Shown: positions 2,276 to 15,535, numbered from the stretch's first letter. The stretch: 32,000 nucleotides of DNA from Pseudomonadota bacterium (GCA_038745535.1 JBCDLI010000007.1:1-32000), one strand, 5' to 3'. Translations and numbers: made by a program. Notes: generated by a model not told the origin, from the letters alone.

Positions 2276-2565
2276 TTCCTTCATTTCTTTCTTTCGGTTG
2301 CAGCTGCAACCGGACTAGGCACGCGCCAATGAGCGGGGGAAGCCGTCAAGACCGCAGAGAGCGGTGGGTATCACCCGTCCTGCACGAGCCGAAGGCGCGG
2401 AAGGATGGGGAGACCGCTGGCTGCGCCCAACGGGCTTGGCCTTGATGGATGATGGGCCGCAGGCCCGCTTAAGGAAAAGAGAGATAGCCCATACGGGCTG
2501 GCATTACTGCACGGAAAGGGGTGCGCAAATCACCAGGAAAAGGGCTCAGGAATGCCTGAAACAAT

Positions 2566-4080
2566 TCAGGTCAAAAAAAGAGGCGATGAATTTCTCCTCG
2601 GCAGGACCAGAGTGAGTGATCGCTTTGCGCGACTAATTGCGACGTACAATCGACATCTAGAATAGAGTGTTTGGGAGAATCGACCGTCGCATGGGAGTAT
2701 CAGCGCGTTATCGCACTGCAGGCCTTTTGCCTTGTGAATGGTGCTAATCGCTCTTGCTGGCGGCATCGGGTGAGCAAAGGATCGCCTTCTGCCGAGTTCG
2801 GCAAGACCGTCATGTGGATCGGCAAAATTGCCCAGACGGATCGCATCACGGTATTCGCTACGGTAATCGATTTTGATCCCCTCAAAGCCGACGGCGCTGT
2901 CTCGGCGGAAATCCGACAGCGTAGCAAGGCATTTGGCGACGCCGTTGTGGTCGGGTTCATCGAGGATTATGCGGGCGAGCTTCTGGATATTCGCAGGTTT
3001 GCCGCGCGCCGTTCTACTGCAGTTTTGGCTGACTTCCTGCACGAAGCGATTGCCGTGGCTAGAAGGACTGAAGCCCGTGGCAACGCTCCCCATAAATTCA
3101 ACAAAGGCATTCGCAAGCGCCACTGGGTTGCGGTCGGCAGCCTCACCCGCGGTGATAAGCTGATCAAGAGCTGGTCTTGTATGACCCTCCCAAATGGGAA
3201 TGGAGCGATTCCAAAGCGCGGCAAGTGCTTCGGTCAGGTCGTTTTGAGGGGTGAGGATCAGAAGCTCGCTGCTATTGCGCGCTACAGCGTCAATCGGCAC
3301 ACGCTCTGCATTGCTCAATCGGTAGCCACGACCGCTGGCGCAATTGTCGGCATTGATAAGCGTAAGACCTTGAGGAAGTGAGCCAGTCAGATCGATGGGG
3401 TGACCTTCCTTTAGGGCGGCGCGCGCTTCCAATATCCACCTGCCTAGCGCTGGCGTCCCGTCTCTCCACCGGTGCGGCGTCTGAAGCTCAGCAAATACGC
3501 CCGCTGACTTGTTTTCCTCCCATCGCGCCCGCGCACTTGTGGCTTCGTTACCTCGAGCGTAAATGCCCTGCATCGGATCGCCAAAAATTCGGAGTCTGGC
3601 GCCCGCTTCTCGTAATGCGACTAGAACACTATGCTGATCGGCACTAGCATCTTGGTGTTCATCGGCAATAATAACGGGGAAGCGTTCGGCCAAAGCTGCG
3701 GCTACAAATGGATGGCTCGCAAGCAGTTTTCCTACCTGGTTGGCCAAAGTGGCATAGGCCTCATTTCCCTGCCGCCGGGCCCACGCGGCTGGGTCAGGAG
3801 GAAGATCGAGCGCTTTGTGGTACGCGGCGGCGATTTGCACAATCAGGGAGTCGAGCGTCCTTATCTCGACTTTACGGTGCACGGTGCGTGTTGACTTAGC
3901 AAACGCCGCACACGCAGCGTGGGTATGGGTAAGTATCAAGACCCGCCCGGTCGAAAGCTTTGAAGCTGCACGCAGCGCATAACAAGCGCCCTGGTATGTC
4001 TTGCCGCATCCGGCAGGCGCTTCCACAACGACGAAAGGCGCATCTGAATTAAGTAGTGCTGCGACACCTTCATCCGTCAT
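2566..4080 (-). CDS. UvrD/PcrA/Rep-like superfamily-1 helicase (GajB-like)
   Basis: SF1 motifs are present: Walker A EAPAGCGKT, motif II IIADEHQD, motif III FGDPMQGIY, motif V TIHKAKGLQCD and motif VI LYVAISRAKRSL. I place the start at ATG 4080 (MTDEG...), which overlaps the upstream stop by 11 nt (ATGACGGATGA). This gives about 504 aa. Confidence 0.85.
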   Translation of the reverse strand: MTDEGVAALLNSDAPFVVVEAPAGCGKTYQGACYALRAASKLSTGRVLILTHTHAACAAFAKSTRTVHRKVEIRTLDSLIVQIAAAYHKALDLPPDPAAWARRQGNEAYATLANQVGKLLASHPFVAAALAERFPVIIADEHQDASADQHSVLVALREAGARLRIFGDPMQGIYARGNEATSARARWEENKSAGVFAELQTPHRWRDGTPALGRWILEARAALKEGHPIDLTGSLPQGLTLINADNCASGRGYRLSNAERVPIDAVARNSSELLILTPQNDLTEALAALWNRSIPIWEGHTRPALDQLITAGEAADRNPVALANAFVEFMGSVATGFSPSSHGNRFVQEVSQNCSRTARGKPANIQKLARIILDEPDHNGVAKCLATLSDFRRDSAVGFEGIKIDYRSEYRDAIRLGNFADPHDGLAELGRRRSFAHPMPPARAISTIHKAKGLQCDNALILPCDGRFSQTLYSRCRLYVAISRAKRSLTLVLPRRNSSPLFLT

Positions 4081-5863
4081 AGGCAATATCGGTGATCTCA
4101 GCCTGCCCGAGGGCCGCACGGATCGCATTGATGAACGGCAATAAATCAGATCGGAGAGTTGGCCAAACGCCAAGCGCAAACATCTTGTCAGCGAGTTCGC
4201 GTCCGCCTGTCACCGATTTGAACCAGCGTCCCCCGTGGCGGCTCCACATCTTTGCAACCTCGTTGTTGGTCGCACCATCTTTGCTGCCCGTGGCAGCCGC
4301 GATAAGCAGCGCCCGGAAATCACCAGTTGTCTGTATGATAGCCTCAAGGCTCGTGTCGTCGGTGCCAAGGCGGGTCGCCAAGGTAATACGCCGCTCTGCG
4401 GCCACGCCTGCATCGTTGTGGGCGATAAGCTCTGCAAGCCTGTCCTTCGGCACGAGCTTGATGATGGCTTCTTCAGTACAACCTGCCGTCCACTGGAACA
4501 GGCGGTCGCCCATCGTCGTTTTTAGCGCAGACCAGCGACCAGACGCATGGCCCTCGTCATCGGCGAAGCCGCCGAACGCGAGGCCTCCACCCGTCAGCGC
4601 TTCTAGAAGATCAAGTGTGGCGGGATTGCCCTGACCGTTGCAAACACGTACTCCGTGATCAGCAAAACTCCCATCGATAGCGCGTTCCAGCATCGATGAA
4701 AGGAACCCTACTTCGGTCGGGCCTTCGGCAATGACAGCAAACCGAGCTAGGAAGGTTTCGGGGTCGCGTTCTTGCTGCCTGGCGACCTTGGCACGTGGCA
4801 GTGCACCGATATGACCAGCGCCGTCAAGATACCATAGGCTTGCGTCGTCTGCCGCGTTAATCGCAGCGGCACTGTGCGTGGTGACAAAGCTTTGCGAGCC
4901 CTGGGCCTGCAAGCTTTTAATCAACTTGCGCTGACGGTAGGGTTCGAGGCCGCGTTCGATCTCATCAATTACTGTGATGCTGCTTTCGGCTTCGCTAGCG
5001 GCGGCAATTTGCAGTGCCGTCATTCGCCGTGTACCTGCTCCCCAGCTTGCAAGCGGAAGCGATACGCCGGAGTCGCGATCGGCCATTAGGCCGATTAATG
5101 CGCCGATAGAAAGACCTTGACTGGTCGTCAACGCCAAATCCAGTCCGCTCGGTAAAGCTTCAGCCTTTAGTGTGGCGTCAAGTTTTTCCATCGCCGTCTT
5201 GGCGTCATCGCCAAGGTATGCAGCGAGATCAATTTCTGACACGCGCTTCCCAATCCGGGCACGCAGGCCTTTGTCCGCCAACAAGCGATCAAGCGCGGAG
5301 CCGTAGACCAGCCGAAGATCGCGATCATTGCGGTCATCGCCGCTAAGGCGAACGATGCCGATGTTTCGGCGTACCGCAGCCGAAAGAAGATCGGTTTCAT
5401 CGTTGGGCTGGACAATCTCCCAATTTATTTCCAGCTCGGCGGTGCCTTGCACTTGCAGACGGTAAACGCGTTTACCCGACGATGAACCACCCTGCACATC
5501 ATCGTCTTCATCGCTGATAGGAGGAACGGCATCACTGCCGTTCCATTCCCAGGGCCACGCGAACTTCTGCTGCTGGCCGATTTCAGAGGACGCGGGCAGT
5601 TCGACAACCGCCTGAATCACGAACCCCTCTTCGACTTTACGCTGCCAGTAATCCGCTTCGGAAAGCACGATACTGTTTGTAGGACTGAACAAAAGCGCTA
5701 TCGCATCGAGGATGGTGGTCTTTCCGGCATCGCCGCCGCCAAGCACGATGTTCATTCCGCAAGACGGATTCCAGTCAAGCGACTGAAGACCGCGAAACCG
5801 CTCAATCTTAAGTTTTAGTACCCTTGGCGTCTCGGTCTGCTGAGCGGCGACGTAATCACTCAT
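4070..5863 (-). CDS. OLD-family ATP-dependent nuclease: ABC-type ATPase plus C-terminal TOPRIM (class 2 OLD / GajA-like)
   Basis: ATPase motifs: Walker A GGGDAGKT, signature-like SWGAGTRRM, Walker B ITVIDEIERGLEP and H-loop FVTTHS. TOPRIM motifs: glutamate in VIAEGPTEVGF and the DxD-like GFADDEG. 597 aa, immediately followed by a UvrD-like helicase. Confidence 0.85.
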   Translation of the reverse strand: MSDYVAAQQTETPRVLKLKIERFRGLQSLDWNPSCGMNIVLGGGDAGKTTILDAIALLFSPTNSIVLSEADYWQRKVEEGFVIQAVVELPASSEIGQQQKFAWPWEWNGSDAVPPISDEDDDVQGGSSSGKRVYRLQVQGTAELEINWEIVQPNDETDLLSAAVRRNIGIVRLSGDDRNDRDLRLVYGSALDRLLADKGLRARIGKRVSEIDLAAYLGDDAKTAMEKLDATLKAEALPSGLDLALTTSQGLSIGALIGLMADRDSGVSLPLASWGAGTRRMTALQIAAASEAESSITVIDEIERGLEPYRQRKLIKSLQAQGSQSFVTTHSAAAINAADDASLWYLDGAGHIGALPRAKVARQQERDPETFLARFAVIAEGPTEVGFLSSMLERAIDGSFADHGVRVCNGQGNPATLDLLEALTGGGLAFGGFADDEGHASGRWSALKTTMGDRLFQWTAGCTEEAIIKLVPKDRLAELIAHNDAGVAAERRITLATRLGTDDTSLEAIIQTTGDFRALLIAAATGSKDGATNNEVAKMWSRHGGRWFKSVTGGRELADKMFALGVWPTLRSDLLPFINAIRAALGQAEITDIAYDG

Positions 5864-6036
5864 AAGCTCGCCTCCAGCAGTCTTATCTCATCATCTGTCA
5901 GCCCGAACAGCCCATAAACGATAGAATTAATGCGTTCCTCGTTGGCTTTGATCTCCGCAGTCAGGCGCGCGATTGTCTTCGGATTGAAGAGATGAATTCG
6001 ATTTGCTGATTTATTCGCTAGTGCGGCCAAATTCAT
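5860..6036 (-). CDS. 58-aa ORF with a methyltransferase-tail-like C-terminus (VYGLFGLTDDEIRLLE); functional status uncertain
   Basis: Its ATG (6036-6034) overlaps the RHH gene stop as ATGA. Its TGA overlaps the OLD-nuclease ATG as ATGA (5860-5863). Only the last 58 codons of the 213-aa track ORF look protein-like. Confidence 0.4.
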   Translation of the reverse strand: MNLAALANKSANRIHLFNPKTIARLTAEIKANEERINSIVYGLFGLTDDEIRLLEASL

Positions 6037-6239
6037 TTTCGCGATCTTTTGTTGTAGTTTGGCCCACTGATTAAAGCGCGCTGCTTTTCGACGTACTCTC
6101 TCATGAACTCGCGCAAAACCTGGGCGGCTGGTTTGTCCTCCGCCTTGCAGGCGGCGACGAATTGCTCCCGCAATTCGCGCTGCACCCTGATTCTGAGACC
6201 GACATCCTTCATACCAAGAAGTGTAGCCAATGGATACAC
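6033..6239 (-). CDS. Ribbon-helix-helix (CopG/Arc/MetJ-type) DNA-binding protein
   Basis: The RHH pattern is a beta strand GLRIRV, then helices QRELREQFVAACKAE and PAAQVLREFMREYVEKQ. The track start at 6239 is a GTG. An internal ATG at 6212 (MKDVG...) is an alternative start. It is the first gene of the coupled operon. Confidence 0.7.
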   Translation of the reverse strand: MYPLATLLGMKDVGLRIRVQRELREQFVAACKAEDKPAAQVLREFMREYVEKQRALISGPNYNKRSRK

Positions 6240-6682
6240 AAATGTGAAGGGGAAATGGCGTTTGGATGGTTATGCTCTTGCGTACTTGGGTGCGATTAAT
6301 CGAGCGGGCGATTACGCATGGTTCGGTGCAGGTGGAGAGGCATATCTCCAAGTCCTGCGAGTGGGTATCGGGTCGCGAAAGACCTGATCGGCATCCAAAC
6401 GGCGGACGGTTGGTCTCGATGAAATCGTCTCCATGACATGGCGCGCATCCAATCCGCGCAGGGTTGGCCCCACGGCGTGGCCTCAATGGCGTTGTCTCCA
6501 TGAAATGGTCTGGATTTCACAAGGGCAGGAACGCCCTTTGATCGATGGGTGCAGGGAGAGCGAAGTCTCCCGCGAGTGGTGAAACGGCGATACGTTTTTG
6601 GCTTCAAAAGGCTCAATGCCTGACCGAAGCCACAAGCCGGGGGGATGCAACGGGGGCGCGCAGCGGGCCACCTTGCCAAGAT

Positions 6683-6765
6683 GTTTTGTACTACAAAACA
6701 CATCTTGCAGTGCGCCTACGGCCCGAAGCTGCCTTTGTACTACAAAGACATTATTGTATTACAAT
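6683..6765. promoter_or_regulatory. Cluster of three TTGTA-N-TACAA palindromes (putative operators)
   Basis: The three palindromes are GTTTTGTA-C-TACAAAAC (6683-6699), CTTTGTA-C-TACAAAG (6733-6747) and ATTGTA-T-TACAAT (6753-6765). Their centres are 49 and 19 bp apart. The patch is AT-rich and lies between the MarR 3' end and the defence operon. Confidence 0.45.
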
Positions 6766-6787
6766 GACTTGCGCTAGGTCTAGCTTG

Positions 6788-6824
6788 TTGCAGGGCTACG
6801 CTGAAACAATTGGGTAGCCTGCAA
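6788..6824 (-). terminator. Hairpin immediately downstream of the MarR stop (terminator-like, no clear U-tract)
   Basis: TTGCAGGGCTAC (6788-6799) pairs with GTAGCCTGCAA (6814-6824) with one bulged G and a 14-nt loop. The hairpin starts 1 nt after the stop codon at 6826-6828. Confidence 0.3.
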
Positions 6825-6825
6825 A

Positions 6826-7284
6826 TCACTCGGCTTTAGATTCCTCGTATGCCGATGCCGCATCACCGAGATACTTTACAGCATCGTTGAGCTCCTCCTG
6901 GGAGTAGCCTGTGGCACGTTCCTGAAGCCTTGAGACAGTGCTTCGATACAGCGGACCCACTGTTGCAAAGAGATGTTCAGTGGGATGCACAATCACGCCA
7001 CGACGGTCTTCTGGGTCTCGATCTCGACGTATCAGGTTAGCCTTTTCTAACCTGTCTAGAAGGCTAGTAACGGAGCCTGTTGTAAGGCCTAGCTCCTTGG
7101 CGATGTGACCAGGCTTAGAGGGCGCTTCAGCTAAAAGGTTCAAACACCGAAGGTCGTTACGGCTCACGTTCACCAGTGACGCGGCTTGTGTATCGAGGCG
7201 GTCGATAGCCGCGTAAAGCCGACGACAGACTTGAACCAAATCTTCGACGCTTCGATCCGCGCTATACTCCTTGCTTTCCGTCAT
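6826..7284 (-). CDS. MarR-family transcriptional regulator
   Basis: A winged-HTH core typical of MarR is present: LRCLNLLAEAPSKPGHIAKELGLTTGSVTSLLDRLEKANLIRRDRDPEDRRGVIV. The gene is divergent from the 7372 gene. Confidence 0.9.
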   Translation of the reverse strand: MTESKEYSADRSVEDLVQVCRRLYAAIDRLDTQAASLVNVSRNDLRCLNLLAEAPSKPGHIAKELGLTTGSVTSLLDRLEKANLIRRDRDPEDRRGVIVHPTEHLFATVGPLYRSTVSRLQERATGYSQEELNDAVKYLGDAASAYEESKAE

Positions 7285-10311: not shown

Positions 10312-11124
10312 CTATTCCGCTTTCGGGCTGATGTCGGTCACCTTCACAAGCTCAACCTCGAAATCTGGATCGAATATCTGAAGGTCGTGCCTGCGCCGCG
10401 TCGCCGCGTGCAAGCCGTTGAACGTCAGATGGCCTTGGAGAGTCAGCGGCTCGTCGGAAACCGTGGTAAGCCGATAGAGCCGCGTTTCCAAAAGCGACTT
10501 CGTCACCATTAAGAAGCCGGATATGCCGAACGGCATAAGCACCCCTGAATTCGATATCGCGATAGGGTTTTCAGGGAATGTGTCTATTTCTGGATCGATG
10601 GCGACATTGGTCACAGCATCGGCAATCAATAGCGCGTTGCTGCGCTCAAGAGGCGTCATGGCGATGAGCGCATACGCGATATCAAATGTTGGCCGTGGTA
10701 GTTCAAAATACTCATGCGGGACGCTTCCAATGCCCTTTGGCGGTGGTGCTTTTGAAGCGGGCCGCATCGGACGCAAATAGGCTTGGTATCGTCCAACCAA
10801 ACCTGACAAGTCGGCGTTTTGGTCCTGCGCCTGAGAAAACAGCCGCGCAACGGCGATTGCACTTTCCTCGACACCTTCGGGCGCGACCTGATTCAGATAT
10901 GCCTCAACAGCCGCGATGAAGTCTTCGGGCTGTTTTCGGTTTTCTTTCAAAAAGCGCGCAATGCGCCTTTGCCCGCCGTAGTCGGCAGCGGCAAAGCCCG
11001 TCTTTTCGGTGATCTGATCCGAAATCCTCTGCGCGCTCAGCCCGTAGCGCTCCGCGTGCGCTTGTAGGCGCGCGCGAAGTCTTGCTCGCTCACTGTCTGT
11101 GTAATGGGCCGGGGCCTTCGCCAT
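10312..11124 (-). CDS. Hypothetical protein (270 aa): helical HTH-like N-terminus plus an unknown beta-rich C-terminal domain
   Basis: This is a long ORF with an ATG start and protein-like composition. No family motif was recognised. The segment YGLSAQRISDQITEKTG is HTH-like. It lies 30 nt upstream of the phosphatase-like gene and is divergent from traG/virD4. Confidence 0.6.
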   Translation of the reverse strand: MAKAPAHYTDSERARLRARLQAHAERYGLSAQRISDQITEKTGFAAADYGGQRRIARFLKENRKQPEDFIAAVEAYLNQVAPEGVEESAIAVARLFSQAQDQNADLSGLVGRYQAYLRPMRPASKAPPPKGIGSVPHEYFELPRPTFDIAYALIAMTPLERSNALLIADAVTNVAIDPEIDTFPENPIAISNSGVLMPFGISGFLMVTKSLLETRLYRLTTVSDEPLTLQGHLTFNGLHAATRRRHDLQIFDPDFEVELVKVTDISPKAE

Positions 11125-11216
11125 GCGTGTCTAACTTGTGTCCAAGCAATTCTGAGTTCCGTCGCCAATATTCGTCTGCAACGCGGCACGCCGTGTCAAC
11201 GAATGGACGGACGAAG

Positions 11217-12884
11217 ATGGCAGCTAAAGGCAACAATGGATCGGGGTATGGGACGCTACTTGCTGGCGTATCCATCTTTGCGTTCTCGACCTACTGGCCC
11301 GACATCTTCGGCGTCACCCCCGACACCTATGACACGCTGGTCAGCGGCTTTGGTCAGTTCATCGGAGGGCTGACAGCCCTCCAAGGCTTGGCGGAGGCCT
11401 ACCGCGCTATTCAAGCCAAGGAACAGCGCAAGGCGCTTGAACAAACCACTGGCACGTTTGGGACGGCTGACTTCGCGGATGCTGAAACCATCGAAGCCAA
11501 GGGCTTGTACGATCCAAACGGTCTGTATCTTGGCCTGCACAATGGTCAGCCAATCTTTAACAAAGGAAAGGCGCACCTTCTAACGTGTGCGCCTGCCCGC
11601 CAGGGCAAGGGTATCAGCGCCGTTATTCCGAACGCTCTGCATTATCCGGGATCGATGGTTATCACAGACCCTAAGGGTGAGCTTGCCGCCGTCACTGGCG
11701 AGCACCGCGAGGCGCGTTTCGGGCAAAAGATCGCGTATTTCAATCCCTACCGTTTGCACGGCCTACCGCAGCACCGGATCAACGGGCTTGAAGATATCTT
11801 GCTGAGCGCAGGCGACCCGCAGGGTCAGCGTGAGCTAATGGCGAAAGCACGCCGCAAAGCCTTTCAACTCTACCCGGAGCCAGAGGACGGACGGAACCGC
11901 GTGTTCCGCGACGGTGCGCGCGATCTGCTTGCTTTCTCGCCTGTGTTCAATGCGCTGTTCGAGCCTGAAAGCTGTACGCTGCCCGGCATCTATCGCGATA
12001 TTGCGAACCCAAGGCGGCTTCGGAAAAAGCTCCTGACTGCGCGCGACTCCGATGCGTTGGGCGGTGCGCTTGCCGATATGGCCGATGACATCCTTCAGCA
12101 AATGGAAGACACGCCAGAATTGTTCGGCAGCTTTCGTGCCGGAGCCATCCAGCAAGTCAGCATCTATGAACCAAGCGGCTATCTCGCCGATGCCGTTAGC
12201 GGGTCGGACATTTCGCTCGCTGATCTAAAGTCGGGCGATACGACGCTCTATCTCATGATGCCGCCTGAACGGATTGCCTCTGAAGGCGCTGCACTCGGCT
12301 TGATCGTGAATGAGGCCATCGCTGCCGTGTCGCGTTCTGAGGAAGATGGCGAAGCACTCTTTCTACTCGATGAGTTTGCGAACATTGGCAGGCTATCCAG
12401 TCTAGCGGAAAGCTTGACGACGCTACCTGGCCTGGGTGTTCGCGTCTGGATGATTGTGCAGGAAGAAGCCGAACTTGTGCGTCTGTATGGGCCAAACACG
12501 GCCCAAACGATCAAGTCGCAATCCGAAGTCCGGCAATACTTCGCTGTCAACAGCGCTGCCCTCGCGCAATCGCTTTCACGCGAGTTGGGCACGCGGACGG
12601 TTCGCACGCGCAGTCACAATCTCGGTCACGCCGTCACTGACGATGTCGGCGAAAGCATCGGCGAAGCGGGCCAGCCGCTCATGCGGCCTGAAGAGATCAT
12701 GCAGCTCGGACCCTCGGACCAACTGCTGATGGTCAACGGTCTCAAGCCAATCCTGGGGCAGCGCATTCCGTTCTGGCACGTCGATCCATGGAACGGCTGG
12801 GCCGCGACCAACCCCGTCGAAGGGGAAACGCCGAATGCCGAGACGCTCGTGCGGCTCCGATACACCCTCGACGAAGATGAATGA
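11217..12884 (+). CDS. Type IV secretion coupling protein (TraG/VirD4 family)
   Basis: An N-terminal TM segment is present. The Walker A context is CAPARQGKGISAVIPNAL and Walker B is LFLLDEFANIGRL. The start is set at ATG 11217 because the upstream 45 track codons are Cys/Pro-rich and not protein-like. Confidence 0.9.
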   Translation: MAAKGNNGSGYGTLLAGVSIFAFSTYWPDIFGVTPDTYDTLVSGFGQFIGGLTALQGLAEAYRAIQAKEQRKALEQTTGTFGTADFADAETIEAKGLYDPNGLYLGLHNGQPIFNKGKAHLLTCAPARQGKGISAVIPNALHYPGSMVITDPKGELAAVTGEHREARFGQKIAYFNPYRLHGLPQHRINGLEDILLSAGDPQGQRELMAKARRKAFQLYPEPEDGRNRVFRDGARDLLAFSPVFNALFEPESCTLPGIYRDIANPRRLRKKLLTARDSDALGGALADMADDILQQMEDTPELFGSFRAGAIQQVSIYEPSGYLADAVSGSDISLADLKSGDTTLYLMMPPERIASEGAALGLIVNEAIAAVSRSEEDGEALFLLDEFANIGRLSSLAESLTTLPGLGVRVWMIVQEEAELVRLYGPNTAQTIKSQSEVRQYFAVNSAALAQSLSRELGTRTVRTRSHNLGHAVTDDVGESIGEAGQPLMRPEEIMQLGPSDQLLMVNGLKPILGQRIPFWHVDPWNGWAATNPVEGETPNAETLVRLRYTLDEDE

Positions 12885-13966: not shown

Positions 13967-15535
13967 ATGCGCGATTTTGAAAACGAAAACCAAGGACCGA
14001 CGAAGGCGGTCATCTACTGCCGTGTTTCCAGCACGAAGCAGACCGTGCGCGGCGATGGCCTTGGTTCGCAGGAAACGCGCTGCCGCGAGTTCGCAAAATA
14101 CAAGAGCTATGAAGTCGTGAAGGTCTTCACCGATGACAGTTCGGGGAGCCTCACGTCCCGCCCTGGCATGCAAGCCATGCTTGCGTTTTTGAGCGCCAAT
14201 CGGAAAGAGCCGCACGCTGTCATCATTGACGACATCAGCCGACTTGCTCGTGGCTTGATGGCCCATTTCGAGCTGCGTGTGAAAATCAGCGATGCTGGCG
14301 GCGTTCTTGTCAGCCCGTCGATTGAATTCGGCGAAGATTCGGACTCGCAGCTTGTCGAGAACCTTCTGGCTTCCGTGTCACAGCATCAGCGCCAAAAGAA
14401 CGGCGAGCAAACCGTAAACCGCATGCGTGCGCGCGTGCAAAGTGGCTTCTGGGTGTTTCAAGCCCCTATCGGTTACCGCTACGAACGCATGAGCGGTCGC
14501 GGTAAGGTCTTGGTGCGAGACGAGCCGCACGCGTCGATCTTGCAAGAGGCTCTGGAAGGCTATGCCTGTGGACGCTTCGAAACGCAGGTCGAAGTGAAGC
14601 GCTTCCTTGAAAGCCAGCATGCCTTTCCAAAGGATTTGCCGAACGGCGAAATCCGCAATCAGCGCGTATATGAGTATCTGACGCGTGCGCTTTATGCGGG
14701 CTATGTCGAAGCTCCGAAGTGGGATGTGTCGCTGCGCAAAGGGCAGCACGAGGGCCTGATCGACCTCGCAACCTTCGAAAAGATACAAGAGCGGCTTACG
14801 AGCACGGCGAAGGCTCCTGCGCGCAAAGATATCAGCGCAGACTTCCCGTTGCGCGGTTTCATCCTGTGCAACGATTGTGAGAAGCCCCTGACCGCATGTT
14901 GGTCTAAGGGCAAGAAGCAGAAGTATCCGTATTATCTCTGCCCGACCAAAGGGTGTCCGAGCTATCGCAAATCGATCAAGCGGGAAACGCTTGAAGGAGA
15001 GTTCGAAGACATTCTGAAGTCACTACAGCCCACAGAAGGACTGTTCACGCTTGTGAAAGCGATGTTCCGCGATGCGTGGGAAATGCGCAAAGCGCGTGCT
15101 TCCGAGTCTGCCAAGGGCATCAAGGCCGACATCAAGAAGATCGAAAAGCAAATCGATCAATTTCTTGATCGCATCGTCGATGCGAGCAACGACTCCGTTG
15201 TATCTGCTTACGAAAAGCGGATCGCAAAGCTTGAGCGCGAGAAAATGCTGGCTGAAGAGAAGATCGCAAAAAGTGGCAAACCTCGGCATACCTTTGAGGA
15301 GTCGTTCGAACACGCCATACGATTCTTATCAAGCCCTTGGGATATATGGAGAAAATCGGATTTAGCCCTGAAGAAAACCGTCCTCAGACTGGCGTTTTTG
15401 GAGCCTTTGCCATACAGCCGGGAAACAGGACTTCGAACACCTAATTTAGCATTACCTTTCAAGGCTTTAGGTGATTTTTGCAGCAACAAATGTGAGATGG
15501 CGCACCCGGGAAGATTCGAACTCCCGACCCCTTGA
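13967..15535 (+). CDS. Large serine recombinase (resolvase/invertase N-domain, recombinase domain, zinc ribbon, coiled coil)
   Basis: The catalytic-serine motif is AVIYCRVSSTKQ, and IIDDISRLARG is also present. The zinc-ribbon cysteines are CNDC...CPTKGC. A long coiled coil follows. An SD (GGAGG) precedes ATG 13967. The last ~12 codons are read from the antisense of the tRNA gene. Confidence 0.9.
   Translation: MRDFENENQGPTKAVIYCRVSSTKQTVRGDGLGSQETRCREFAKYKSYEVVKVFTDDSSGSLTSRPGMQAMLAFLSANRKEPHAVIIDDISRLARGLMAHFELRVKISDAGGVLVSPSIEFGEDSDSQLVENLLASVSQHQRQKNGEQTVNRMRARVQSGFWVFQAPIGYRYERMSGRGKVLVRDEPHASILQEALEGYACGRFETQVEVKRFLESQHAFPKDLPNGEIRNQRVYEYLTRALYAGYVEAPKWDVSLRKGQHEGLIDLATFEKIQERLTSTAKAPARKDISADFPLRGFILCNDCEKPLTACWSKGKKQKYPYYLCPTKGCPSYRKSIKRETLEGEFEDILKSLQPTEGLFTLVKAMFRDAWEMRKARASESAKGIKADIKKIEKQIDQFLDRIVDASNDSVVSAYEKRIAKLEREKMLAEEKIAKSGKPRHTFEESFEHAIRFLSSPWDIWRKSDLALKKTVLRLAFLEPLPYSRETGLRTPNLALPFKALGDFCSNKCEMAHPGRFELPTP

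Follow-up and report, generated by a model that had tools for sequence, protein, structure and literature searches.

A two-gene Gabija system behind a ribbon-helix-helix gene and the stub of a type IIG restriction gene: a probable decayed composite defence operon on a mobilizable element

By published definition, an OLD-family nuclease gene adjoining a UvrD-like helicase gene constitutes a class 2 OLD system, which is the anti-phage system Gabija (PMC10568477). In the Gabija system of Bacillus cereus VD045, a gene for an ABC ATPase-TOPRIM OLD nuclease (GajA) and one for a superfamily 1 (SF1) helicase (GajB) are adjacent (PMC10568477). The two B. cereus proteins form a complex, and DNA cleavage by GajA is inhibited by nucleotides, an inhibition that is released during infection; the 4:4 complex, the nucleotide-inhibited site-specific nicking and the protection against phages are known for the B. 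cereus system only (PMC10781630, PMC8136825). Here we analyzed a 32,000-nucleotide stretch of DNA from a Pseudomonadota bacterium (GCA_038745535.1, JBCDLI010000007.1:1-32000), referred to below as the window, whose minus strand encodes such a pair behind two small open reading frames (ORFs). An earlier note on this DNA, made from the sequence alone, had proposed a Gabija variant of four genes, with a ribbon-helix-helix (RHH) protein and a 58-amino-acid (aa) ORF as dedicated extra components. We consider it very likely that the locus is instead a decayed composite defence operon on a mobilizable element, in which a two-gene Gabija system lies behind an RHH regulator and the stub of a restriction gene.

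Four successive ORFs were read from the minus strand, at positions 6033-6239, 5860-6036, 4070-5863 and 2566-4080. As had been described before, they are chained by overlapping start and stop codons: ATGA at 6033-6036 joins the first ORF to the second, ATGA at 5860-5863 joins the second to GajA, and an 11-nt overlap (ATGACGGATGA, 4070-4080), also found in seven close relatives, joins GajA to GajB. The first of these genes starts at ATG 6212, giving a 59-aa protein, and not at GTG 6239, since this GTG is the first triplet of a palindrome discussed below and homologues begin with MKDVG. A 213-codon open frame at 5860-6501 was rejected as a longer gene; it overlaps the conserved RHH gene off-frame, and its composition is typical of off-frame translation.

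The origin of the 58-aa ORF became apparent from a syntenic locus, L081 (L numbers designate related loci and P numbers individual proteins), whose GajA is 82% identical to that of the window. There the gene order is RHH, a 1071-aa type IIG enzyme, GajA and GajB. The enzyme carries Eco57I, MmeI_Mtase, N6_Mtase and TaqI_C domains, fits the PADLOC model PDLC03609 end to end (E 7e-138), and has its ATG overlapped by the RHH stop codon as ATGA, the same as in the window. The window ORF (5860..6036, minus strand, 58 codons) fills the same slot between RHH and GajA, and it shares both the start and the tail (...INSIVYxLFxLTxxEIxLLE) of this Eco57I/MmeI-like enzyme. Its residues 1-24 align without gaps to enzyme residues 1-24 (13/24 identical, 54%), and its residues 22-58 align, again without gaps, to enzyme residues 1035-1071 (25/37 identical, 68%; E 2e-12). 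At the DNA level, similarity between the window and L081 covers 2561-5827 (77%), 6083-6239 (81.5%) and 6523-6708 (79%) and skips the body of the enzyme gene. The tails of type IIG models provide the sole domain-level signal in the ORF, with only the last ~50 positions of the REase_MTase_IIG model PDLC03609 being matched (E 1e-5). No Pfam domain was detected in it, a word-index search of 5.8 billion clusters returned only the ORF itself, and an exhaustive HMMER search of 1.84 billion representatives yielded no full-length homologue.

Comparison with L081 and with a further locus, L215, places the deletion junction, ATCGCGCGC, at 5965..5973 on the minus strand, in codons 22-24 (I-A-R, encoded by ATC GCG CGC at 5973-5965). 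The corresponding 5' side in L081 is GTTGCGCGC, followed by CAT, and the 3' side is ATCTCCCGC, followed by CTG; the 3' side in L215 is ATCGCACGC. The deletion endpoints share a 9-nt imperfect direct repeat (microhomology), between the two copies of which ~1010 codons (~3 kb), some 95% of the gene, were lost in frame. What is left contains no nuclease, methyltransferase or target-recognition domain and cannot restrict or modify DNA. It does retain both ATGA overlaps and, in its 3' end, a Shine-Dalgarno-like GGAGG (5871..5875, minus strand) that lies 7 nt 5' of the GajA ATG and that also sits in the LLEA codons of the intact L081 gene. Where relatives have their GajA start ATG the window has CAG, and GajA starts here at the ATG that overlaps the stop codon of the stub, 7 nt past GGAGG. 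The 3' end of the dead gene has presumably been kept because translation of GajA needs it. Judged by these alignments, the 58-aa ORF is an in-frame deletion remnant of a type IIG gene and not itself a member of the type IIG family; its match to the first 24 and the last 37 residues of the L081 enzyme does not agree with the accessory role that had been suggested for it.

Comparable remnants were found elsewhere. In L215, P0242 (105 aa) consists of the first ~30 residues of an RHH protein fused to the last ~75 residues of the same type IIG lineage; the tail has 89% amino-acid identity to the window stub and, over the 103 nt shared at the 3' end, 90% nucleotide identity. P0242 follows the palindrome (with one mismatch) and overlaps the start of a HamA and HamB pair, that is, of a Hachiman system (L215 275-4156). 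In L216, P0243 joins an Mrr_N domain to this tail, and its ORF overlaps the gene for a PDC-S37 helicase (L216 2368-7610). L188 contains RHH, a fragmented Eco57I/MmeI-type methyltransferase and a ResIII protein, followed by GajAB at 66% identity, and L093 (GajA 79% identical) contains a degenerate palindrome and a divergent 62-aa RHH that ends 3 nt before GajA, with a convergent relaxase downstream as in the window. Because of these four loci, we regard loss of the front restriction gene as recurrent, with the abutting 3' end kept each time. The exhaustive search also returned many short ORFs of 47-105 aa that end in the tail motif; P0244-P0257 (47-104 aa), from public assemblies, contain little beyond the type IIG tail (...INSIVYxLFxLTxDEIxLLE) and may represent additional stubs or genes cut off by the end of a contig.

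These short ORFs, together with the intact frame, start codon and stop codon of the window stub, could be taken to mean that the stub has been co-opted, its type IIG tail helix having gained a function such as modulation of Gabija or titration of the partners of related restriction enzymes. The 103 nt shared with L215, which differ at 10 nt but at only 2 amino acids, point in the same direction. Low amino-acid change can, however, predate the deletions, an in-frame outcome has a one-in-three chance of arising, and the GajA ribosome-binding site and start overlap carried by the 3' end account more simply for its retention. The other stubs differ in junction and length, so that no common small protein is conserved, and some of the short ORFs are probably parts of genes cut off where a contig ends. 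We thus regard co-option of the stub as unlikely.

The two large genes are those of a Gabija pair. GajA (597 aa; 4070..5863, minus strand) matches the PADLOC model PDLC04168 with residues 14-563 (model positions 3-546 of 570; E 2.3e-67), and GajB (504 aa; 2566..4080, minus strand) matches PDLC04173 with residues 17-494 (model positions 12-463 of 471; E 7.2e-57). This profile search, which had been put forward as a check, therefore returned Gabija models over the full length of both proteins. Pfam identified AAA_21 (E 1.4e-17) and AAA_15 in GajA and UvrD-helicase, UvrD_C_2 and AAA_19 in GajB, and the sequence matches of GajB in the Protein Data Bank (PDB) include B. cereus GajB (BcGajB). The OLD-like_TOPRIM domain, on record for many GajA homologues, scored just below its cutoff in the window protein (21.5 bits versus 23.2). 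All of the ATPase and TOPRIM motifs quoted in the earlier note (GGGDAGKT, SWGAGTRRM, VIDEIERGLEP, TTHS, AEGPTE and FADDEG), like its helicase motifs, were found in the translations; in a family alignment of 24 sequences the GajA motif residues are mostly invariant and the TOPRIM residues E380, E384 and D435 are invariant. The P-loop APAGCGKT and motif II DEHQD of GajB, which are present as quoted and had been pointed out as deviating from the usual UvrD strings, are no oddity of this locus but are shared across the clade, with the catalytic residues retained: in 77/77 relatives the P-loop G, K and T and the motif II D, E, Q and D are invariant, and the motif II H is kept in 75/77. Both large ORFs have hundreds of full-length homologues, and the GajA family includes 1770 proteins from many phyla at E <= 1e-10 among 8000 scored candidates.

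A search of PDB sequences with GajA (phmmer) gave matches to PtuA-type ATPases only and none to GajA, and the family profile reached B. cereus GajA (BcGajA) only weakly; we therefore relied on fold comparison. The AlphaFold model of GajA, built with 24 relatives, has a mean pLDDT of 70, with values above 85 for residues 370-590. Its top match in the PDB (Foldseek) is the Thermus OLD nuclease (TsOLD, 6p74; E 6.5e-11), with B. cereus GajA at E 5e-6 to 4e-5, and it also matches the C-terminal TOPRIM regions of BpOLD and XccOLD (target-normalised TM 0.54-0.56). The predicted fold of the window protein is thus like that of BcGajA and of the BpOLD and XccOLD TOPRIM regions, and PADLOC, Pfam and this fold agree with the prediction that the pair comprises an OLD-family ATPase-TOPRIM nuclease and an SF1 UvrD-like helicase. 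Since it fits the published definition of an OLD nuclease with a UvrD-like helicase, we assign the pair to Gabija; as read from its sequence, it is an ordinary two-gene class 2 OLD system, with adjacent genes as in B. cereus VD045. It differs from the characterised pair in several respects. The sequences are very distant, and the activity of the window pair is a prediction; the helicase is shorter and has DEHQD as its motif II; GajA and GajB overlap by the conserved 11 nt; and in this clade the pair is often distal in a longer operon, behind other defence genes such as restriction-modification (R-M) or Fic genes. Homology predicts that GajA and GajB form a complex in which GajA cuts DNA when nucleotides fall during infection and GajB supplies a DNA-end-stimulated NTPase (PMC10781630, PMC8136825, PMC10568477), and this standard two-gene system would be the sole effector remaining at the locus. 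Because the clade is distant from characterised members, its nuclease specificity and nucleotide sensing may differ.

The first gene of the operon (6033..6212, minus strand) encodes MKDVGLRIRVQRELREQFVAACKAEDKPAAQVLREFMREYV plus a basic tail, and its product is likely the autoregulator of the operon. We found 821 homologues, which share a near-invariant 41-aa core and have a variable basic tail. An orthologue in L004 (64% identical) scores 24.8 bits with Pfam RHH_9 (PF19839), above the cutoff, and many homologues carry PF19839. Membership in the RHH family was taken from this family profile and not from the structural model, because the monomer model lacks the N-terminal strand; the fold of the 59-aa protein is most likely RHH.

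Directly upstream of this gene, a promoter scan identified a promoter-like site (6220..6248, minus strand; TTCACA-17 nt-TACACT), which contains a 19-bp palindrome, GTGTATCCATTGGCTACAC, at 6239-6221. This palindrome is presumed to be the RHH operator; the window has a single copy of it, against 0 expected by chance. In the form GTGTATCCATTGGNTACAC it precedes each member of the RHH family that was examined, overlapping a promoter-like site, and it is found in the matching position in L004 (576-594), L081 (1413-1431), L084-L090 (e.g., L085 6972-6990 and L090 6974-6992), L188 (4414-4432), L215, L218 and L219; it also occurs in L095-L214. In the examined loci GTGTATCCATNGGNTACAC lies just 5' of the RHH start, with a mismatch in a few copies (L215, L218). 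A metagenome scan with the palindrome returned at least 120 loci, and the cassette is also present on plasmids. Among the matches listed, 87 unique loci have an RHH gene after the palindrome, and in 81/87 the ATG lies 7-10 nt past it. In the metagenome flanks, cTAcACAaat before the palindrome and T after it, a -35-like TACACA is separated by 17 nt from a -10 TACACT. The -10 hexamer ends 7 nt upstream of the ATG and a Shine-Dalgarno sequence is absent, so that the mRNA is probably leaderless, as the position of the start codon 7-10 nt past the palindrome likewise suggests.

Together, these features show how the locus arose and suggest how it could work. Its ancestral order was a promoter with operator, RHH, a type IIG gene (~1070 aa), GajA and GajB, an order still seen in L081, and the type IIG gene was then reduced to its stub by the deletion between the repeat copies. 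An RHH dimer is predicted to bind the 19-bp palindrome over its own -10 hexamer, plus a third TACAC half-site at -35, and in this way to regulate its own expression. The transcript would start at or next to the RHH ATG, and ribosomes would move along the overlapping chain of RHH, stub, GajA and GajB. The RHH protein most likely autoregulates one transcript that now expresses only Gabija.

RHH homologues head a variety of operons, mostly R-M operons on mobile elements, and the junction between RHH and the next gene is usually an ATGA overlap. RHH precedes HsdM, HsdS and HsdR in Rhodopseudomonas palustris HaA2, heads a type I HsdR gene on a conjugative plasmid of Sphingobium, where MobC and a relaxase lie nearby, and heads further type I systems in L084/85 and L218. 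In L004 it is followed by HsdR, HsdM and HsdS and then by GajAB, and in L090 it heads an MmeI enzyme just past a relaxase. Among the matches listed, the 41 first genes after RHH include 10 of MmeI type, 13 ResIII genes (at least 5 of them HsdR and 5 SNF2) and 5 C5 methyltransferases, along with single cases of an N4/N6 methyltransferase, HsdM, Mrr, GmrSD and an AAA_15 ATPase. On a Methylocystis bryophila plasmid (p1, NZ_CP019949.1; L219 8003-12055), an unannotated RHH gene with the palindrome 5' of it lies directly upstream of a Gabija pair of a different clade (PDLC00062, PDLC00114); this RHH gene has a 1-nt frameshift, without which its stop codon would overlap the GajA start as TAATG. RHH is thus a generic head of R-M and other defence operons and not a part of Gabija. 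Of the role proposed for it as a dedicated regulator, one half probably holds, namely that it regulates the Gabija transcript; dedication to Gabija is not borne out, as it heads mostly R-M operons.

We also surveyed the related Gabija loci, taking one genome per species, which gave 80 loci with GajA at 48-85% identity. GajA and GajB were present in 80/80, and GajB follows GajA in nearly all, with a few GajB copies displaced, disrupted or shortened. Such a survey had been proposed as a test of whether the RHH gene and the small ORF are conserved beside GajAB, and they are not: tblastn detected neither of them adjoining GajA in any of the 80 loci (0/80), including the 85%-identical L006. The sole RHH match in this survey was in L004, 5 kb upstream of GajA. 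Overall, the loci that combine RHH with this Gabija clade are limited to L081, L004, L188 and L093; R-M genes separate the two in the first three of these but not in L093. The same-strand genes upstream of GajA fall into 69 unrelated clusters, which include type I R-M systems, methyltransferases with type IIG-like enzymes, a Fic-domain (SoFic-like) gene, a retron reverse transcriptase with PRTase, an AAA_13 ATPase with ChaC, and PbeA. This variety is the pattern of a defence island and not that of a fixed four-gene system.

A genuine four-gene Gabija variant, with the RHH and 58-aa proteins as dedicated regulatory or accessory subunits, would be consistent with the start/stop overlaps that join all four ORFs and with the RHH genes that abut Gabija in L093 and, frameshifted, in L219. 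It is at odds with the survey, with the lack of any full-length homologue of the 58-aa protein among the clusters and representatives searched, with the collinearity of this ORF with both ends of the type IIG enzyme, and with the RHH homologues that mostly head R-M operons without Gabija. We consider such a variant, as proposed in the earlier note, very unlikely.

Several other arrangements were observed upstream of GajA. When upstream genes conserved with Gabija were sought, the only one to recur was a gene for a Fic-domain protein; this gene is present in nine loci of a more distant subclade (49-53% identity) and absent from the window. Its product of ~460 aa (PADLOC SoFic / PDC-S04-like) overlaps the GajA start in L029, L030 (4622-6004), L031, L036, L041, L043, L048, L051 and L058, by 4 nt in seven of the nine, and this three-gene Fic-Gabija arrangement may be real. 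In L006, L082, L083 and L092 (GajA 80-86% identical), GajA is preceded by a methyltransferase of ~700-720 aa and a type IIG-like protein of ~1080 aa; this restriction module has a 4-nt overlap with GajA and differs from that of L081 (e.g., L006 603-6007). L094 (3888-7767) carries a second OLD-family gene (696 aa, AAA_15 plus OLD-like TOPRIM) directly upstream of GajA, giving two OLD nucleases in tandem, and this second gene is preceded by a 65-aa ORF, an N4/N6 methyltransferase and a 271-aa ORF. Upstream of GajA in L091 (2398-6004) are four uncharacterised genes, for proteins of 74, 614, 254 and 260 aa, the last of them overlapping the GajA start by 4 nt; the 614-aa protein has a weak match to the PADLOC candidate PDC-M33A.

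A number of observations weigh against the interpretation of the locus as a decayed composite operon. The N-terminal match of the stub is short (13/24; E 0.007 against the fetched loci) and rests largely on position, and L081 is the only intact syntenic relative found. The ATPase half of the GajA model is of low confidence, and the clade is so distant from characterised GajA that the family profile reaches only the N terminus of BcGajA (E 4e-4). The window RHH protein itself scores below the RHH_9 cutoff (15.5 bits versus 23.4; E 0.016), its AF2 monomer (pLDDT 80) has two helices with the expected N-terminal strand modelled as a helix, and the best folds found for it in the PDB (Foldseek), all of them RHH proteins, have E-values above 1. 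Whereas gene identities, synteny, the ancestral gene order, the deletion, the conserved operator at the promoter and the mobile-element setting are shown by the sequences, we infer the single transcript, the RHH repression and the leaderless start from sequence geometry, and anti-phage activity would follow from homology. Finally, the source of the window is a metagenome-assembled genome, so that the deletion could formally be an artefact of assembly. The real genome would then contain an intact R-M gene, which an assembler or a binning step had removed from the 68.9-kb contig that includes the window; assemblers can be misled by short direct repeats. The junction is, however, clean and in frame at a 9-nt repeat, far below assembler k-mers, and comparable stubs with different junctions occur in independent samples, so that we judge an artefact to be highly improbable.

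Very unlikely, and the least probable of all, is a toxin-antitoxin-like or plasmid-stability pair that RHH and the small ORF would form independently of the defence genes beside them. Antitoxins are commonly RHH proteins, the RHH antitoxins CopA(SO), TacA and AtaR are among the best structural neighbours found with the model, and the locus is on a mobile element, but the partner ORF is a restriction-gene remnant without a toxin domain, and the gene that follows RHH elsewhere is a large R-M or other defence gene rather than a small toxin.

Like the controller (C) proteins of type II R-M systems, the RHH protein is a small, predicted DNA-binding protein encoded first in its operon and overlapping a downstream restriction gene, with a palindrome near its own start codon and a geometry that suggests a leaderless mRNA; many C-protein genes are transcribed from a start at or near the ATG and are leaderless (PMC2632904). 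The two differ in that C proteins are helix-turn-helix proteins with C-boxes ~17-18 nt from the start codon, whereas the RHH protein is a 59-aa member of the RHH_9 family with a different palindrome 7-10 nt from the ATG. Unlike C proteins, it also stands first in operons of type I, type IIG and type IV restriction genes and of defence genes other than restriction genes. In this last respect it resembles the repressor RptR, encoded beside type I R-M systems (PMC12255303), and BrxR/CapW (PMC9122601), small widespread regulators at the head of defence islands, for which protein and binding site (putative for RHH) are conserved and the cargo varies. RptR is a 79-aa four-helix protein of Gammaproteobacteria that binds TAGCTA repeats (PMC12255303), and BrxR and CapW are WYL-domain helix-turn-helix proteins (PMC9122601). 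A relationship of RHH to RptR was rejected, as sequence comparison found no relation between them. We found no published description of this 59-aa RHH family, which, given incomplete literature coverage, is weak evidence of absence.

The cargo seen with the RHH gene and palindrome comprises type I, type IIG and type IV restriction systems, C5 methyltransferases, Mrr, GmrSD, Gabija and Hachiman. We tentatively suggest, while leaning slightly toward doubt, that the two constitute an undescribed, highly mobile controller cassette that gives a self-regulated, probably leaderless promoter to interchangeable defence cargo, and that stubs persist because their ends carry translation-coupling signals. 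If this were true, conjugative and mobilizable elements of Proteobacteria would have in this cassette an RHH-fold equivalent of C proteins and RptR. Stacked operons, with R-M first and a second system behind it, would then lose the restriction gene repeatedly, and its 5' and 3' ends would survive because they carry coupling signals on which the downstream system depends.

Consistent with the mobilizable island suggested before, the window contains a NikA/MobC-like gene, a MobA/VirD2 relaxase, a VirD4/TraG type IV coupling protein and a large serine recombinase (coordinates 151-1895, 11082-12884 and 13967-15535), the relaxase being convergent with the Gabija operon as in L093. These genes indicate an integrative mobilizable or conjugative element. 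The 186-nt block at 6523-6708 that is shared with L081 is non-coding and includes a GGGAGA-N6-TCTCCC hairpin; 39 nt of it recur, at 90% identity, upstream of the L090 mobilization genes. A 13-nt palindrome, TTTGTACTACAAA, is present twice in or near this block (6685-6697 and 6734-6746), and the 6523-6750 region may be an origin of transfer (oriT) or a regulator-binding site. At the other end of the operon, a consensus scan found a weak terminator-like hairpin directly 3' of the GajB stop codon (2545..2560, minus strand), for which the position alone is suggestive because the regional count of such sites is not above shuffled expectation. An Rfam scan of 2300-7000 gave no credible structured RNA, and a megablast search of a plasmid collection for close DNA relatives gave a sole match of 102 nt, in Tritonibacter.

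For the annotation of defence loci, our findings mean that a short ORF inside a defence operon, rather than being a new subunit, can be a scar in which the two ends of a deleted gene survive; here it was enough to align the ORF with both termini of the neighbouring gene product from a syntenic relative. With respect to operon structure, members of this Gabija clade often form the distal end of longer operons that begin with R-M genes, and decay of the front gene leaves regulator, promoter and translation-coupling signals in the operon. Together with its invariant operator, the RHH protein is a compact candidate for the regulation of many R-M and defence operons and, if confirmed, would join C proteins, RptR and BrxR in the control of toxic defence cargo on mobile elements.

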